Shown here: positions 36,351-43,917 of the stretch, in pieces
Layout: the number at the start of each line of letters is the position of its first letter
How positions within the stretch are numbered: the first letter of the stretch is position 1
Source of the DNA: Thermoanaerobaculia bacterium
Lineage (GTDB): Bacteria; Acidobacteriota; Thermoanaerobaculia; UBA5066
Assembly (NCBI GenBank): GCA_963816185.1
Contig: CAWFJJ010000029.1
Location: 352,001-416,000 of the forward strand
Direction of reading: 5' to 3'
Length of the DNA: 64,000 bases
Made by a program: the position numbers and the translations under genes
Notes under the pieces: generated by a model
What the model saw: only the letters and a program-made list of their open reading frames with translations
Told to the model about the DNA's origin: nothing
Database searches by the model: none

Positions 36351-36434
36351 CCGCCGGCTACGGAAGGAATCGCTGCACGCCCGCCCGCCACATGTCGCCT
36401 CCATGTCCGGACACGGACAAGAAGCGGACAGCCG

Positions 36435-36478: not shown

Positions 36479-36555
<77 letters not shown>

Positions 36556-36566
36556 TCAGAAGGAGG

Positions 36567-36595
36567 AACATAACGGGACGGCCCCGAGGAGTCAA
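36567..36595 (-). promoter_or_regulatory. Sigma70-type promoter of the tRNA
   Basis: TTGACT-N17-TATGTT, ending 11 nt upstream of the tRNA 5' end. Confidence 0.7.
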
Positions 36596-36635
36596 GCCGA
36601 CGTTCTCGCTGTTAACCTCCGGCGGCGGAGGCAGT

Positions 36636-37097
36636 ATGACTCTCTTTTCGTCAACGTCGCTCGAGCCCGGCATGGCCGCACCCGATTTCACGCTCCCCGA
36701 CCAGCACGGAAAGAAGGTGCGCCTTTCGGACTTTCGCGGAAAGCGCGTCGTCCTCTACTTCTTCCCGAAGGCCGACACCCCCGGTTGAACGATCGAGGCG
36801 AAGGCCTTCCGGGACGAAGGCCCGAAGCTCCAGAAGGACGTGGCCGTCGTGGGCGTGTCGAAGGACACGATCGAGGCGCAGGAGAAGTTCGCGAAGAAGA
36901 ATGAGCTGACGTTTCCCCTTCTCGCTGATTCCAAGGGCGAAGTGATCCGCCGCTACGGCGTGGACCTCGCGTTCGGCATCGCGAAGAGAAAGACGTTCCT
37001 CATCGACTCGAAAGGGAAGATCGCGAAAATCTACGAGTCGGTCTCGCCGAAGACGCACGCGGCCGAGGTCGCCGAGGCGTTGAAGTCCGTCGGCTGA
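36636..37097 (+). CDS. bcp: Bcp/PrxQ peroxiredoxin, probable selenoprotein (Sec at codon 51)
   Basis: GGAGG RBS. Reads APDFTLPDQHG..VVLYFFPKADTPG-[TGA 36786-36788]-TIEAKAFRD..VVGVSKD..RKTFLID..GKI in a single frame. The TGA sits at the peroxidatic Cys position of PxxxT/SxxC. Confidence 0.85.
36795..36830 (+). promoter_or_regulatory. Bacterial SECIS-like hairpin
   Basis: Perfect 7-bp stem GGCCTTC (36803-36809) / GAAGGCC (36816-36822) with loop CGGGAC, starting 14 nt after the UGA; possible lower GAG/CTC pairing. Confidence 0.65.
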
Positions 37098-37161
37098 CGC
37101 ACGGCGGCGCCAGGGAGGTCGTCGACCTCCTCAGGAAAGCTCGCTTCTCAGGGACTCGTTC

Positions 37162-37205
37162 CGACAATAATGTCGTGAGCTATGTTCCATTCCACAATTC
37201 CGTAG
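37162..37205. promoter_or_regulatory. Tandem palindromic upstream activator sites for the amtB promoter
   Basis: CGACA-ATAA-TGTCG (37162-37175, perfect arms) and CCACA-ATTC-CGTAG (37192-37205), 30 bp apart. Confidence 0.6.
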
Positions 37206-37294
37206 CCTGAAAGGCTGGGTGAATTTCCTTCCGCGCCGACCACTAGTCCAACGACTGGAATGACTTCCGCGGCCTTCCGGCGTTGGAGTCGGGG

Positions 37295-37310
37295 CGGCAC
37301 GCGCCGTGCG
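37295..37310 (+). promoter_or_regulatory. Sigma54 (-24/-12) promoter of amtB-glnK
   Basis: CGGCACGCGCCGTGCG, GG-N10-GC, ending 26 nt before the amtB ATG. Confidence 0.7.
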
Positions 37311-37336
37311 AAAGGCCCGCAACGGAGGTTGACTGT

Positions 37337-38932
37337 ATGGCCAAGAAGAAGCCCGTTTTCTTTCTCGTGCTGGCCGGATTGCTCCTCGTGTCGTGGGCGC
37401 TCCTCGCGGACGCGACCGGCGACAAGACGGGCGGAATCGCGAACGTGCCCGCGCAGGTTCCGGGAAAGCCCACGCTCGAAGAGATCGGAGCGGCTGTCGG
37501 CCAGACGCGCGTGTCGCTCAACTTCGTCTGGACGCTCGTCGCGGGCTTCCTCGTTATGTTCATGCAGGCGGGCTTCGCGCTCGCGGAGACCGGCTTCACG
37601 AGGGCCCGGAACGCGGCCCACACCATGATGATGAACTTCATGGTCTACGCGCTCGGGATCCTGGGGTTCTGGGTGTGCGGGTTCGCGCTGCAGATGGGCG
37701 GGTCCGGCGCGCCGATGGGGGCCGCCGTGAGCGTTCCGGAGACGATGACGAGGCTCATCGGACCATCCATCGGCGGAAATGTCTGGGGGCTCTTCGGCGG
37801 CACGGGATTCTTCCTCTCGGGCGTCTCCTATGACGTCGCCGCGTTCGCCATCTTTCTCTTCCAGATGGTCTTCATGGACACCGCACTCACGATCCCGACG
37901 GGCTCGATGGCCGAGCGGTGGAAGCTTTCGGCCTTCGTCATCTACGGGCTCGTCGTGTCGGCCGTCGTCTACCCCCTCTTCGCCTGCTGGGCCTGGGGCG
38001 GCGGCTGGCTCTCGACGCTCGGCAAGTACGTGGGCCTGGGACACGGGTACGTCGACTTCGCGGGCTCCGGCGTCGTGCACCTGACCGGCGGCGTCATGGC
38101 GCTGGTCGGCGCGGTCGTCCTCGGCCCGCGCATCGGCAAGTACGTGAAGGGCGAGGCGCAGGCGATTCCTGGCCACAACCTTCCGATGGCCGTCCTCGGA
38201 TGTTTCATCCTGGCCTTCGGCTGGTTCGGCTTCAACGCGGGTTCGACGCTCTCGGGCACCGACCTGAGGATCTCCGTCGTCGCGGTGAACACGATGCTCG
38301 CGTCCGCCTCGGGCGCCTTTGTCGCATTTCTCTACACGTGGAAGAAGTTCAGCCGTCCCGATCTCTCGATGGCCGTCAACGGCATGCTCGCGGGCCTCGT
38401 CGCGATCACGGCGCCGTGCGCCTTCGTGAACGCTCCGATTGCGGTCCTCATCGGCGCGGTGTCCGGCGTCCTCGTGGTCGCGGCCGCGCTCTTCATCGAG
38501 AACAAGCTCAAGATCGACGACCCGGTCGGCGCGATCGCCGTGCACGGGGTGAACGGCGCCTGGGGACTCATCGCGCTCGGCCTGTTCGCGGATGGCACGT
38601 ACGGCGGCGGCCTGAACGGCGGCCCGGCGGCCGGCGTCGCGGGCCTCTTCTACGGAGACCCAAGACAGCTCGTGGCGCAGTTCGTCGGGATCGGCGCGAA
38701 CCTCCTCTGGGTAGGGGGCTCGAGCTTCGCGCTCTTCAAGATCATCGACCTGACGCTCGGGATGCGCGTGAGGCCGGAGCAGGAGATGCAGGGCCTGGAT
38801 TTCAACGAGGTCTCGGCGCCCGCGTATCCGGGCGAGGGCTCGCCCGTCCACTTCCCCGTTTTCGCGAGCGTGCCCGCGAAGGTGGCTTCGCCGCTGCTCG
38901 TCGCGCAGGCCTCGCCGGCCGGCGGAAAGTGA
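37337..38932 (+). CDS. amtB: Ammonium transporter
   Basis: FMQAGFA, FQMVF, AERWK, DFAGSGVVH, GWFGFNAGS and DDPVGAIAVHG (both pore His residues kept); GGAGG RBS. Confidence 0.97.
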   Translation: MAKKKPVFFLVLAGLLLVSWALLADATGDKTGGIANVPAQVPGKPTLEEIGAAVGQTRVSLNFVWTLVAGFLVMFMQAGFALAETGFTRARNAAHTMMMNFMVYALGILGFWVCGFALQMGGSGAPMGAAVSVPETMTRLIGPSIGGNVWGLFGGTGFFLSGVSYDVAAFAIFLFQMVFMDTALTIPTGSMAERWKLSAFVIYGLVVSAVVYPLFACWAWGGGWLSTLGKYVGLGHGYVDFAGSGVVHLTGGVMALVGAVVLGPRIGKYVKGEAQAIPGHNLPMAVLGCFILAFGWFGFNAGSTLSGTDLRISVVAVNTMLASASGAFVAFLYTWKKFSRPDLSMAVNGMLAGLVAITAPCAFVNAPIAVLIGAVSGVLVVAAALFIENKLKIDDPVGAIAVHGVNGAWGLIALGLFADGTYGGGLNGGPAAGVAGLFYGDPRQLVAQFVGIGANLLWVGGSSFALFKIIDLTLGMRVRPEQEMQGLDFNEVSAPAYPGEGSPVHFPVFASVPAKVASPLLVAQASPAGGK

Positions 38933-38948
38933 AAGGAGCGACGTTCCC

Positions 38949-39314
38949 ATGAAAATGATCACCGCCATCATCCGGCCGGAGAAGCTGGACGACGTGAAGG
39001 CCGCCCTTTTCGCGGCCGAGGTCGAGGGGCTCACGATCACGCGGGTTTCCGGCCACGGAGGAGAAAAGACGGTCCTGGAGAGCTATCGGGGGCATCCGCT
39101 CGTTTACGAATTCCACGACAAGGTCCGGCTCGACATCGGCGTCTCGGAACCGTTCGTCGACGTGACCATCGAGGCGATCGTCAAAGCGGGCAAGACCGGA
39201 CAGGTGGGCGACGGAAAGATCTTCGTCATGCCCATCGAGAAGGTCGTGAGGATCAGGACGGGCGAGCTCGACCGGGAGGCCGTGACGCCCGTCCAGATGC
39301 TCCATAAGAAGTAG
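38949..39314 (+). CDS. glnK: P-II nitrogen regulatory protein
   Basis: AIIRP.KL, YRG, TGQVGDGKIF and RIRTGE motifs; adjacent to amtB. Confidence 0.93.
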   Translation: MKMITAIIRPEKLDDVKAALFAAEVEGLTITRVSGHGGEKTVLESYRGHPLVYEFHDKVRLDIGVSEPFVDVTIEAIVKAGKTGQVGDGKIFVMPIEKVVRIRTGELDREAVTPVQMLHKK

Positions 39315-39340
39315 CCGAAAAAAAATAGAGACGCGCAGCG

Positions 39341-39363
39341 GGGCTCCTCCTCGCGAGGAGCCC
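39341..39363 (+). terminator. Hairpin between glnK and the porin gene (possible attenuator or stabiliser)
   Basis: GGGCTCCTC-CTCGC-GAGGAGCCC 9-bp stem with no strong U-tract. Confidence 0.4.
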
Positions 39364-39384
39364 TCTGTGAAAGGAGTTCCCGAG

Positions 39385-40575
39385 ATGACCCGACTTCGCC
39401 GGGCCCGTGTCCCGTGTCGTTTCCGCGCCGTCGCGCTCGCCTTCACCTTGACCGCCGCGCTCGGCGCCGCGCCTCCGACACTCGGTCAGCCCGCCCCCAC
39501 GCCGACGCCCGGCGCCGCGCCGGCGCCAAGCCCTGCGTCGCCGGCCGCCGCAAAACCCTGGTACGAGGAGATCGCGGTCAACGGCTTCGTCTCCACGAGC
39601 TATTCCTACAATTTCAACCGGCCGGACTCCGGGACGAATCAGCTTCGGGTCTTCGACTTCGACGACAACACGTTCAAGGTGGACGTCGCCGAGATCGTCC
39701 TCCAGAAGGCGATCGTCAAGCCGGGCGAGGCCGGTTTTCGCATCGACCTCGTGGCCGGTTCGTCGATCCCGCGCGTCTCGTCGTCGGTCGGCCTTCTTCA
39801 GGGCCAGGACATCGACCTCCAACAGGCCTTCGTGAGCTGGATCGCGCCGCTCGGAGACGGCCTCCGGCTCGACGCGGGGAAATTCGTCACGCACTTCGGG
39901 TACGAGGTGATCGAGGGATATGACGGCTACAACGACAACGCGAGCCGGTCGTTTCTCTTCGGCTTCACCATTCCCTTCGCGCACACCGGTCTGAAGGCGT
40001 CGTACACGTTCAGCGACCAGATCGCCGGGATGTTCGAGATCTGCAACGGCTGGGACGTCGCACGGGACAACAACAGCTCGAAGAGCATCGGCCTGCAGCT
40101 CACGTGGACGCCGTCGAAGACGGTGACGGTCTACGGAAATTTCATGACGGGTCCCGAGCGGGCGGACGTCAACTCCGATCCGCGGAACCTCTTCAACGTC
40201 GTCGCGCAGTGGAAGCTCACCGACCTGACCATCTTCGCGCTCGACGCCGTCTACGGCAGCGAGAAGGGAGCGGTGGCGCCAGGTCAAACCGCCACGTGGT
40301 CGGGAATTGCCGGCTACGCACGCTTCGGCGTCAGCGACGCCTTTGCGCTCTGTCTGAGGGCCGAATACTTCGACGACTCGGACGGCGCCCGGACGGGCAC
40401 CGTTCAGAAGCTCAAGGAGCTGACCCTCACCCCCGAGGTCAAGGTGACGTCCCACCTGATCCTCCGGGGCGATCTACGCGTCGACTGGTCCGACGCCGAC
40501 GTCTTCAGCAAGAAAGACGGCGTCTTCAAGGGCAACCAGCCGACGATCCTCCTGAACGCGATTTACGTGTTCTAG
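39385..40575 (+). CDS. Outer-membrane beta-barrel porin (OmpL-like/BBP2 type)
   Basis: Signal peptide and Pro-rich linker; LQQAFV, DAGKFVTHFGYE, N.N.SRSFLF and PFAHTG motifs; terminal YVF barrel signature. Confidence 0.85.
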   Translation: MTRLRRARVPCRFRAVALAFTLTAALGAAPPTLGQPAPTPTPGAAPAPSPASPAAAKPWYEEIAVNGFVSTSYSYNFNRPDSGTNQLRVFDFDDNTFKVDVAEIVLQKAIVKPGEAGFRIDLVAGSSIPRVSSSVGLLQGQDIDLQQAFVSWIAPLGDGLRLDAGKFVTHFGYEVIEGYDGYNDNASRSFLFGFTIPFAHTGLKASYTFSDQIAGMFEICNGWDVARDNNSSKSIGLQLTWTPSKTVTVYGNFMTGPERADVNSDPRNLFNVVAQWKLTDLTIFALDAVYGSEKGAVAPGQTATWSGIAGYARFGVSDAFALCLRAEYFDDSDGARTGTVQKLKELTLTPEVKVTSHLILRGDLRVDWSDADVFSKKDGVFKGNQPTILLNAIYVF

Positions 40576-40632
40576 CCCGCAAGCCGCTGCGCGGCCGCCG
40601 GAGTAATCTCATTTTTCGCTGCCTGACCCGTT

Positions 40633-40676
40633 CGACATTTCTGTTTCCCATGGCATCCGTTCCGACATTCCTGTAG
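40633..40676. promoter_or_regulatory. Tandem copies of the amtB-type motif upstream of the NifA-like gene (autoregulatory site)
   Basis: CGACA-TTTC-TGTTT (40633-40646) and CGACA-TTCC-TGTAG (40663-40676), again 30 bp apart. Confidence 0.55.
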
Positions 40677-40685
40677 GATCGCGGA

Positions 40686-42242
40686 ATGCCGAAGAGCCGT
40701 CACGGTCCGCCCGGCGATCTGCGCGAGCTCCCGGCCCTCCTGGAGCTCTCGCAGATGCTGGGGTCGGCGCGGGGCTTCCGGGCGGCCCTGGACGGCGCGC
40801 TCGCCATCCTGCGCGAGAGCTACGGCGGAAGCGTCGTCACCGCCGCGCTCGTCGACGAGGCGACTGGCGAGCTGAAGCTCGAAACCTCTGCCGGCCTTCC
40901 CGCCGGGCGTCGGCCTTCGCCCAAGCTGCGTTCGGGCGAGGGAGTCACGGGGCGCGTCGTCGCGAGCGGGAAGGCGATCGTCGTTCCGCAGGTGACGCGC
41001 GAGCCGCTTCTCAAGACGCCGAACGAGGTCCTCCCGATCTCGGCCACGGCGCGGCACGAGCTGAGCTTCGTATCCGTCCCCCTCGTCGTCGAGGGCCGCA
41101 CGGTCGGCGCCCTCGGGCTGGCGCTCGGGTACGACCCGGCGCGCGACTTCGCCCGGACCACGTCGTTCCTGAAGGTCGTGGCCTCTCTCCTCGGGCAAGC
41201 GATGCACGTGGACCGGCTGATCGAAGGGGAGCGCGAGCGCCTTCTCGACGAGAACCTCAAGCTCAAGCGCGAGCTGAAGGGCCGCTACGACCTGAAGAAC
41301 ATCGTCGGCCACAGCCGGCCCATGGAGGAGCTCTACGAGCAGGTCGCGCAGGCCGCCCCGGGCGACACAACCGTCCTCATCCGCGGAGAGTCGGGAACCG
41401 GCAAGGAGCTCGTGGCACACGCTCTCCACTACAACTCGCCGCGTGCGGGCAAACCATTCGTGAGGGTGAGCTGTGCCGCTCTTCCCGAGAGCCTGATCGA
41501 GTCCGAGCTCTTCGGCTACGAGCCGGGCGCCTTCACGGACGCGCGGACGCAGAAGAAAGGGCGCTTTGAGATCGCGGACAAGGGGACGCTCTTCCTGGAC
41601 GAGGTGGGGGACCTTTCCGTCGCGACCCAGGTGAAGCTCCTGCGCGTCCTGCAGGAGCGGGAGTTCGAAAGGCTCGGCGGCACGCACCCGGTTTCGGTCG
41701 ACATCCGCCTCGTGACGGCCACGAACCGGGACCTCGAAGCTGCGATGGCGAAGGGCAAATTCCGCGAGGACCTCTTCTACCGCCTGAACGTGTTCACGAT
41801 CTTCCTGCCGCCTTTGCGCGACCGGCGCCCCGACATCCCGCTCCTCGCGGACCACTTCGTCGAGAAATACGCGACGCGGCACCGCAAGGACGTGAGGCGC
41901 ATCTCGACGCCGGCGATCGACGTCCTCATGAGCTATCACTGGCCGGGGAACGTCCGCGAGCTGGAGAACTGCATCGAGCGGGCCGTCCTCGTGTGTGACG
42001 GCGGCGTCCTCCACGCCCACCACCTCCCTCCGACGCTGCAGACCGCCGAGGTGTCGGGGACGCTGCCGCGCCAGTCGCTCGGAGCCGCGGTCGAAGCCTA
42101 CGAGAAGGACCTGCTCCTCGACAGCCTGAAGATCGCGCGGGGAAACCGGGCGAAAGCGGCGCGCCTGCTCCAGACGACCGAACGCATCTTCGGGTACCGC
42201 CTCAAGCGTTACGGGATCGACGCGGCCCGCTTCCGGCCCTGA
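40686..42242 (+). CDS. NifA-subfamily sigma54-dependent activator (GAF-AAA+-Fis HTH)
   Basis: GAF domain (GEGVTGRV...SFVSVPL); GESGTGKE, ESELFG, GAFTDA, FLDEVG and WPGNVREL; C-terminal HTH. Confidence 0.92.
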   Translation: MPKSRHGPPGDLRELPALLELSQMLGSARGFRAALDGALAILRESYGGSVVTAALVDEATGELKLETSAGLPAGRRPSPKLRSGEGVTGRVVASGKAIVVPQVTREPLLKTPNEVLPISATARHELSFVSVPLVVEGRTVGALGLALGYDPARDFARTTSFLKVVASLLGQAMHVDRLIEGERERLLDENLKLKRELKGRYDLKNIVGHSRPMEELYEQVAQAAPGDTTVLIRGESGTGKELVAHALHYNSPRAGKPFVRVSCAALPESLIESELFGYEPGAFTDARTQKKGRFEIADKGTLFLDEVGDLSVATQVKLLRVLQEREFERLGGTHPVSVDIRLVTATNRDLEAAMAKGKFREDLFYRLNVFTIFLPPLRDRRPDIPLLADHFVEKYATRHRKDVRRISTPAIDVLMSYHWPGNVRELENCIERAVLVCDGGVLHAHHLPPTLQTAEVSGTLPRQSLGAAVEAYEKDLLLDSLKIARGNRAKAARLLQTTERIFGYRLKRYGIDAARFRP

Positions 42243-42243
42243 G

Positions 42244-43917
42244 TTACGCGATCTTCCGGTAGAAGTCGTTTCCCTTGTCGTCCACGAGGATGAACGCGGG
42301 GAAGTCGACGACGTCGATCGCCCACACCGCTTCCATCCCGAGCTCGGGGAACTCGAGGACGTCGACCTTCTTGATGTGCTCCTCGGCGAGGAGCGCGGCC
42401 GGGCCGCCCGGCGAGCCGAGGTAGAAGCCTCCGTATCTCTGACACGCCTCGGTCACTTTCGGGCTGCGGTTCCCCTTCGCGATCATGACCATCGAGCCGC
42501 CCTTCGACTGGAAGAGATCGACGTACGAGTCCATGCGGCCGGCGGTCGTGGGTCCGAAGGACCCCGAGGCCTTGCCCTTCGGCTTCTTCGCGGGGCCGGC
42601 GTAGTAGACCGGATGGTCCTTGAAGTATTGCGGCAGGTCGGCGCCGGAGTCGAGGCGCTGCTTGAGCTTCGCGTGCGCGATGTCGCGCGCGACGACGAGG
42701 CGCCCCGTGAGCGCGAGCGGCGTCGAGACGGGATGCTTCGACAGCTCCGCCAGGATCTCCTTCATCGGCTTGTCGAGGTCGATCTTCACGATCCCCGTGT
42801 GCTCCTTCGCGCCCGTCTGGACGGGAAGAAGAACCTCGGGATGGCGCTCGAGCTCCTCGAGCCAGAGCCCCTTCGCGTCGATCTTCGCGAGGACGTTCCG
42901 GTCGGCGGAGCACGAGACGCCCATGCCCACCGGGCAGGAGGCGCCATGCCGTGGCAGGCGGACGACGCGGATGTCGTGAGCGAAGTACTTGCCGCCGAAC
43001 TGCGCGCCGAAGCCGAGCTTCTGCGCCCGTTCGAGGAGCCTCTTCTCCAGCTCCGGATCGCGGAACGCGCGGCCGGTTCTGTCGCCTGAAGTCGGAAGCG
43101 AATCGTAGTAGCCGGTCGAGGCGAGCTTCACCGTCTTCAGGCAGGCCTCCGCGGACGTGCCGCCGACGACGAACGCGATGTGGTACGGCGGGCAGGCCGC
43201 CGTCCCGAGGCTCTTCATCTTCTCGACGAGGAACGCCTCGAGGCTCGCCGGGTTGAGGAGGGCCTTCGTCTCCTGGAAAAGGGTGCTCTTGTTCGCCGAG
43301 CCGCCTCCCTTCGCGACGAAGAGAAACTTGTACTCGGCGCCCTTCGTCGCGAAAATGTCGATTTGCGCGGGAAGGTTGTTTCCCGTGTTGACCTCGTCGT
43401 ACATCGTGAGCGCGGCCGTCTGCGAGTATCGGAGGTTCTCGCCGGTGTACGTCTGAAAGACGCCCTTCGAGAGGAACGCGGCATCGTCGGCGCCCGTCCA
43501 GACCTGCTGGCCTTTCCACGCGACGATCGTCGCCGTGCCCGTGTCCTGGCAGAAAGGCAGCTCGAACCGCGAGGAAACGACGGCGTTCCGGAGGAGGGCC
43601 GTCGCCATGAAGCGGTCGTTCGGGGAGGCCTCGGGGTCCTTCAGGATGCATGCGACCTGCTGCTGATGCTTCGGCCGGAGGAGGAACGACACGTCGCGCA
43701 TCGCCTCGTGCGCGAGGATCGTGAGGGCCTTCGGGTCCACGATGAGAACGGGCTTGCCGGCGAACTTCGCCTTCTTCACGAGTCCCTTCGTAGGCGAGAC
43801 GAGACGGTACTTCGTCGCGTCCTCGCCCTTCGGAAACGGGTTCGAGTAGACGAAGCCGTCCCTGGCGGAAGCTCTCTTCGGGCTCTGTTTTTTCGCGGAC
43901 TGTCTCTTTGCCGGCAT
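42244..43917 (-). CDS. fumA: Fumarate hydratase class I (Fe-S)
   Basis: [38 protein letters not shown] and GPTTAGRMD motifs. Confidence 0.95.

Follow-up and report, generated by a model that had tools for sequence, protein, structure and literature searches.

A predicted NifA-like one-component sigma-54 activator with paired ACA-N4-TGT boxes beside an amtB-glnK-porin operon in a Thermoanaerobaculia bacterium

Introduction

Nitrogen control as the textbooks describe it runs through NtrBC, GlnD and P-II, a cascade of which many environmental phyla lack parts. At the enterobacterial glnAp2 and glnK-amtB promoters NtrC (NR-I) acts on a sigma-54 promoter from two dyad boxes about three helical turns apart and 100–140 bp upstream; it activates amtB-glnK under nitrogen limitation and represses its own or neighbouring promoters via overlapping boxes. 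NifA of A. vinelandii binds 2-oxoglutarate. Here we describe an amtB-glnK-porin operon and the activator gene that follows it (hereafter ebp) in a genome of the class Thermoanaerobaculia, phylum Acidobacteriota (G000; 5.09 Mb, assembly 94.9% complete). Both lie in a stretch of 64,000 nucleotides (assembly GCA_963816185.1, contig CAWFJJ010000029.1, positions 352,001 to 416,000), which we call the window.

The closest described regulator is DVU1949, a one-component activator for which Kazakov et al. 2015 (BMC Genomics 16:919, PMC4641369) predicted a nitrogen regulon in Desulfovibrionales. According to that paper, its predicted box is TT[T/G]ACA-N4-TGT[A/C]AA and its regulon comprises nine operons, among them amt-glnB (DVU1231-1233, with a sigma-54 promoter), DVU1258, DVU3392, glnA and its own operon; autoregulation was proposed. 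For A. brasilense, control of the NifA GAF domain through GlnB is reported (PMC3854208). In the literature searched DVU1949 is named nowhere else and no follow-up to the 2015 prediction was found, nor did any paper there connect sigma-54, amtB and glnK with Acidobacteria in this way; where "NifA-like" is used for Nitrospira, the subject is nxr genes, which have no bearing here.

Results

Relation to DVU1949

Four boxes in the window (S1 to S4, Table 1) have, when compared by eye, the same ACA-N4-TGT core as the sites listed for DVU1949, e.g. GTTACATTTTTGTAAT and TTGACATTTCTGTAAG. As in that system, they stand upstream of the sigma-54 promoter of an ammonium gene and of the regulator's own gene. 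A preliminary description of the window had noted that the motif is neither a NifA nor an NtrC box. This point stands, and no TGT-N10-ACA occurs in either intergenic region; the motif is not unprecedented, as it equals the box predicted for DVU1949. Neither the box nor the kind of regulator is new, both having been predicted in 2015, and the module in the window represents a further member of this predicted kind, with a conserved arrangement.

The two systems, both of them known as predictions only, also differ. The window boxes form strict 30-bp pairs at a fixed distance and have CC/GG flanks, against the TT/AA flanks of the DVU1949 box, and they are found at the adjacent operon only, against nine operons in the predicted DVU1949 regulon. 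A Desulfovibrionaceae homolog (L106), 38% identical to the window activator over residues 14-512 and preceded by a box and a sigma-54-like promoter, has a DNA-binding domain close to the DVU1949 domain as printed. The recognition helices of the window activator and of the DVU1949 type differ (GLTPRQMGYRI against QTTERIFGYRL).

A NifA-like one-component activator

Pfam divides the activator into a GAF domain (residues 31-174), a sigma-54-interaction AAA+ domain (206-372; PF00158, E 2.1e-71) and a Fis-type helix-turn-helix (HTH) domain (HTH_8, 469-509). It shares this architecture with NifA, to which it also has nearly full-length matches in both family and structure: its best NCBIfam match is NifA TIGR01817 (481.3 bits) and its best PDB match is 9qq6, a full-length NifA (E 5e-110 over residues 14-512). 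It differs from the NifA equivalog in scoring below the curated cut-off of 528.85 bits, in the lack of any nifH at E<=1e-10 in the genome, in a putative target that is ammonium uptake, and in its box, which is ACA-N4-TGT and not TGT-N10-ACA (the sole window occurrence of the NifA box is at 36404).

As in NtrC systems, a sigma-54 promoter has two upstream dyad boxes spaced by about three helical turns. The protein is matched by the NtrC profile (TIGR01818) at positions 128-411 only and begins with GAF where NtrC has a receiver phosphorylated by NtrB; the box is a different one, the regulon is local (see below) and no NtrB partner accompanies it. No NtrC above the curated cut-off (best 451.8 vs 558.6 bits) and no GlnD were found in the genome. 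The properties of a sigma-54 activator are all present: PF00158 with a GAFTGA-type loop, a Fis-type HTH, a cognate -24/-12 promoter and an rpoN gene in the genome (399 bits, over its cut-off). The sigma-54 contact loop (41535-41552, residues 281-286) reads GAFTDA in the clade of the window and in G021, and GAFTGA in a 64%-identity clade and in a paralog on contig C30 of the same genome (see below); GAFTDA is among the functional or tolerated loop variants listed in PMC4641369. The in silico evidence supports a NifA-like one-component sigma-54 activator with NifA as the nearest family, in agreement with the preliminary description. In the adjacent P-II protein GlnK, Leu51 and Tyr53 are found in all 13 aligned orthologs; with these residues and no GlnD found, uridylylation-type signalling seems doubtful here.

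Paired boxes and a sigma-54 promoter conserved across the genus

The four boxes, the 30-bp spacing (exact in both pairs, S1/S2 and S3/S4), the -24/-12 element and the four genes of the preliminary description all proved correct in coordinates and sequence when checked against the window and Pfam. For footprinting of orthologous loci, we searched 41 genomes: G000, 24 of its genus and 16 that belong to further families of its order, two of these 16 being the unpublished G025 and G030. Full-length relatives of the activator, 61–96% identical, were found in 17 of the 24 genus genomes; the 16 other-family genomes returned only matches that lack the GAF part.

The operon and its activator occur in two orders. 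Type A, amtB-glnK-porin-ebp, is found at six loci (window, G003, G007, G011, G017 and G009) and type B, ebp-amtB-glnK-porin, at nine (G020, G002, G005, G008, G022, G018, G016, G014 and G006), so that the linkage between activator and operon has survived rearrangement; the porin gene comes after glnK in both. Upstream of amtB, all 15 loci have AC-N6-GT dyads centred 127–129 and 97–99 bp from the -24 GG, together with the promoter CGGCA(C/T)G-N4-CGTGC, at activator identities of 63–100%. Mean column information is 1.67 bits in the promoter and 0.89–0.93 in the dyad cores, and falls to 0.31–0.59 in the flanks. Three further loci, read by eye (G019, G001 and G010), have the same pairs and promoter, which brings the tandem enhancer and sigma-54 promoter first noted in the window to 18 of 18 loci: dyads and promoter are conserved where the flanks have diverged.

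Further boxes accompany this arrangement. A pair directly before ebp is kept in 8/8 loci (all six of type A, G021 and G010), and GTTCCGACATTCCTGTAGGAT at S4 is nearly invariant in the six type A loci. There is no pair before ebp in ten type B-like loci, which retain only GAGTAGGCT there; an extra pair stands instead at 264–266 and 234–236 bp from the amtB promoter in all nine type B loci.

The activator and the orthologous amtB co-occur across the genus. Six of the 24 genomes (G004, G012, G013, G015, G023 and G024; completeness 74–99%) have no activator, and the same six have no orthologous amtB, with 32–34% paralogs or nothing at E<=1e-30. In G021 a 79% identical activator stands beside a different amt-glnK, which is preceded by a single box and by a -24/-12-like element of weaker match. 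The activator copy of G019 (L021, G019:C1:61169-62701) shares only 43% identity and is interrupted by one in-frame TGA, from decay of the regulator or through a sequencing error; the region upstream of amtB in this genome retains all four boxes and the promoter.

Genome-wide specificity of the boxes

ACA-N4-TGT occurs three times in the window, at S1, S3 and S4. By itself this count lacks significance, since three or more are also found in 25 of 100 shuffles, and the notable feature is the placement of the boxes in two short intergenic stretches. In the whole genome, neither the exact pattern CGACA-N4-TGTCG (8 perfect loci) nor the degenerate pattern of the preliminary description (233 matches) brought out a regulon, and three other near-matches that we inspected were all within coding-like sequence. 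For this reason we adopted a matrix derived from orthologs, built on 46 sites from 14 non-window loci with G000 excluded, in which the AC/GT columns are fixed by the criterion used to pick the sites. The family consensus is TTCC[T/G]ACA-N4-TGT[A/C]GGAA. The CGTT(C) flank reported for three of the four window boxes corresponds to the left edge of the extended half-site TTCC.

The matrix scan of the genome gave 366 hits above 9. S1 and S4 are within the top seven, five of which lie at two activator loci (S1 and S4, plus three boxes on C30). S1/S2 and S3/S4 are the strongest pairs at 30-bp spacing genome-wide, and among 277 sigma-54-like promoter matches only those of amtB and of the C30 glnA have a strong box 40–330 bp upstream. 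Two weak boxes, at C8:343064 (score 11.5, before a secreted pilin-like gene) and C29:422529 (score 11.4), were rejected as chance. At C8:343064 a good match to the sigma-54 consensus, GGCACCTATGTTGC, lies in a low-G+C spacer before this gene, whose product is of the spore-coat-U type by reading; the element has no relation to the nitrogen boxes.

Neither the main glnA (on contig C1) nor the second P-II/amt locus has a box or a sigma-54 promoter. As only the adjacent operon is boxed, the window activator appears to be a local switch and not a global nitrogen regulator, within the limits of the assembly. The earlier proposal that it replaces NtrBC is therefore not supported: no NtrC above cut-off and no GlnD were found, yet the main glnA and the second P-II/amt locus are unboxed and the genome encodes more than 20 receiver-type activators. 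A perfect palindrome, TGCACA-N6-TGTGCA, is located at C1:652258-652277, about 100 bp before the start of the main glnA, with no sigma-54-like promoter found; it may be a different, NtrC-box-like control element.

A second activator locus and wider relatives

Contig C30 encodes an activator paralog (C30:46824-48323), 50% identical to that of the window, which passes the NifA cut-off (542 vs 528.85 bits). In this locus (L049, C30:42824-54323 of G000) two boxes spaced by 32 bp come after the paralog gene, then TGGTAT-N5-TTGCT, and then glnA-amtB-glnK. The first ~120 kb of C30 has a G+C content of ~0.60, vs 0.67 elsewhere, and AT-rich spacers, and its glnA and amtB are 86–90% identical to those of a "delta proteobacterium" metagenome-assembled genome, or MAG (L073). 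Even if foreign or mis-assembled, the locus is an independent instance of the same box and promoter grammar.

A wider scan, covering ~1/64 of the genome collection, returned 80 loci. Judged against a locus-specific background, full-length relatives have dyad pairs at 28–34 bp spacing at 5 of their 28 loci and AAA+-only relatives at none of 52; at control spacings there were none in any of the 80. The five are L073 and all four loci with at least 52% identity (two Acidobacteriota, one Blastocatellia and one Spirochaetaceae MAG). By eye, glnA, amtB or the activator gene has a TGGCA-N6-TTGC promoter in these loci, with the pair ~90–100 bp upstream of it, and the Blastocatellia box TTCCGACAATAATGTC is identical to S1.

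Other features of the region

An Rfam search of 36500-42500 yielded a tRNA as its sole match; none of the conserved upstream elements is therefore a known RNA. A consensus scan of 36900-42400 for sigma-70 promoters and terminators found no promoter and no intergenic terminator, a result that is uninformative for this lineage; because no terminator is predicted between porin and ebp, read-through of ebp from the amtB promoter is possible. Between enhancer and promoter, 15 loci keep a block with the core AA..ACTT (Table 1) ~35 bp before the -24 GG; it reads CAATCACTTTCAAAG in the other clade and is possibly a site for a DNA-bending protein. S4 shares bases of its right half with TAGGAT (40674-40679), and 6 nt separate the end of TAGGAT from the ebp ATG.

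Just upstream of the enhancer is a peroxiredoxin gene of the AhpC-TSA/Bcp type (36636-37097, +), itself preceded by a tRNA-Met (CAT) gene (36479-36555, -). It has an in-frame TGA (36786-36788) at the position of the peroxidatic Cys (TPG-TGA-T), and with this codon read as Sec or Cys the AhpC-TSA match is complete (E 5e-41). The genome encodes SelB at C29:15698, over its cut-off, and a SECIS-like fold downstream of the TGA was no better than shuffles (z -0.05). From its sequence, the peroxiredoxin is a probable selenoprotein.

Table 1. Genes and predicted regulatory elements of the locus (window coordinates).
Feature	Position	Strand	Evidence and remarks
Enhancer box S1, CGACAATAATGTCG	37162-37175	.	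Dyad centre 127 bp upstream of -24 GG; matrix score 19.2
Enhancer box S2, CCACAATTCCGTAG	37192-37205	.	30 bp after S1; centre 97 bp upstream of GG; score 14.7
Conserved block TGGAATGACTTCCG, core AA..ACTT, between enhancer and promoter	37256-37269	.	80% consensus of 15 loci
Predicted sigma-54 -24/-12 promoter GGCACGCGCCGTGC, GG-N10-GC	37296-37309	+	Conserved CGGCAC/CGTGCG; rpoN in genome
amtB, ammonium transporter	37337-38932	+	Pfam Ammonium_transp, E 4.5e-114; GGAGG 8 nt 5' of ATG
glnK (P-II)	38949-39314	+	Pfam P-II, E 1.7e-26; T-loop Leu51, Tyr53
G+C-rich hairpin, 9-bp stem, 5-nt loop, in glnK-porin gap	39341-39363	+	No T-run after; not called terminator
BBP2/OmpL-like beta-barrel porin	39385-40575	+	Pfam BBP2, E 4.1e-81
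Box S3, CGACATTTCTGTTT, upstream of ebp	40633-40646	.	Matrix score 12.2
Box S4, CGACATTCCTGTAG	40663-40676	.	30 bp after S3; matrix score 18.9
Activator (ebp), 518 aa, GAF + sigma-54-interaction AAA+ + Fis-type HTH	40686-42242	+	Pfam

Discussion

Proposed mechanism

The arrangement suggests the following course of events. Activator dimers would bind S1 and S2, which are about three helical turns apart on the same helix face, and would assemble into an active ATPase ring. The ring would loop to RNA polymerase-sigma54 at GGCAC-N6-TGC, where its use of ATP would open the promoter. By analogy with NifA, the nitrogen signal would enter via the GAF domain, either as 2-oxoglutarate or through P-II. 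That the activator also controls its own gene, as the preliminary description had it, is plausible because a second conserved pair stands at that gene (8/8 loci). The sign of this control we infer from position: S3/S4 are on the ebp start region, overlapping TAGGAT and the ATG-proximal bases, and are read for that reason as an autorepression operator, which would most likely give negative autoregulation. Taken as a whole, we hold it probable that a NifA-like one-component sigma-54 activator serves the adjacent amtB-glnK-porin operon, its main and probably only target, acting via S1/S2, with a signal received by GAF and autoregulation via S3/S4.

Several points weigh against this reading. The -12 element is GTGC and not TTGC. 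The 18 loci are kin, from one genus and two or three clades, and are therefore not 18 independent events, while the first ~120 kb of C30, with the second locus, may belong to another organism (by contamination, mis-join or as a transferred island). The activator HTH reads AKAARLLQTTERIFGYRLKRY, unlike that of the DVU1949-like homolog, so that a shared specificity with DVU1949 would follow from the sites and not from the protein. The role of S3/S4 is uncertain because the amtB promoter is 3.4 kb upstream of them, and there may be further targets, weaker or unassembled, in a genome that is 94.9% complete. Finally, the matches in RNA libraries (8 runs, each with 5–7% of sampled words, 4 of them compared in detail) are contigs only, which give no start, strand or level; being mostly 90–95% alike, they are ascribed to relatives.

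Alternative explanations

S3/S4 might instead be auxiliary enhancer boxes that raise the local amount of activator and serve the amtB promoter through a 3.4-kb DNA loop. As type B loci bear a second pair 234–266 bp upstream of the same promoter, a module has four boxes as a rule, and that pair would be the counterpart of S3/S4. The possible read-through of ebp from the amtB promoter would fit as well, as would the action of NtrC enhancers from kilobases away, reported in PMC4641369. Against this, the pair abuts the ebp start in 8/8 loci, S4 overlaps a conserved TAGGAT/TAGGCT, and the Blastocatellia and spirochaete relatives keep boxes directly before ebp, all of which fits placement as an operator better. 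We therefore regard auxiliary enhancers as rather unlikely and keep to an operator at ebp.

A different transcription factor, a nitrogen repressor or activator, could also occupy the dyads, with the adjacent activator binding elsewhere or nowhere specific. Dyads with AT-rich spacers are a common format, the HTH is unlike that of DVU1949, and binding of the activator to the dyads is predicted from sequence. Such a factor would nonetheless have to account for dyads that track the activator gene across gene orders and phyla and flank it, that are at enhancer distance from sigma-54 promoters and absent from 52 loci of other sigma-54 activators, and whose top genome-wide matches are confined to activator loci, which makes it an improbable explanation. 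That the protein is a true NifA, serving nitrogen fixation or left over from it, is suggested by its best NCBIfam and PDB matches and by the C30 paralog above the NifA cut-off, and is nevertheless very hard to believe given a score under that cut-off, a 94.9%-complete genome in which no nifH was found, no NifA box upstream of amtB or ebp, and conserved neighbours that are all ammonium-assimilation genes.

Significance

The module appears widespread, with family evidence from Acidobacteriota-type, Blastocatellia, Spirochaetaceae and Desulfobacterota MAGs. A broader and more tentative proposal, to which we would not yet commit ourselves, is that NifA-like one-component activators with paired ACA-N4-TGT enhancers form a family of many phyla and act as the main nitrogen-limitation switch where NtrBC and GlnD are missing, the GAF domain reading 2-oxoglutarate or P-II directly. 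In the genus studied here this switch would have shrunk to a portable cassette of activator, enhancer, promoter and amtB-glnK-porin that is gained and lost as a unit.

If this is true, a one-protein sensor-activator with a recognisable enhancer grammar would explain how ammonium scavenging is induced in phyla that lack parts of the textbook cascade. It would also open uncultured Acidobacteriota, as well as other phyla, to regulon prediction, and "NifA" labels that non-diazotrophs receive automatically could be corrected, as for the C30 paralog, which scores over the NifA cut-off beside glnA-amtB-glnK. The module is also small enough for the 2015 prediction to be tested cleanly in vitro.

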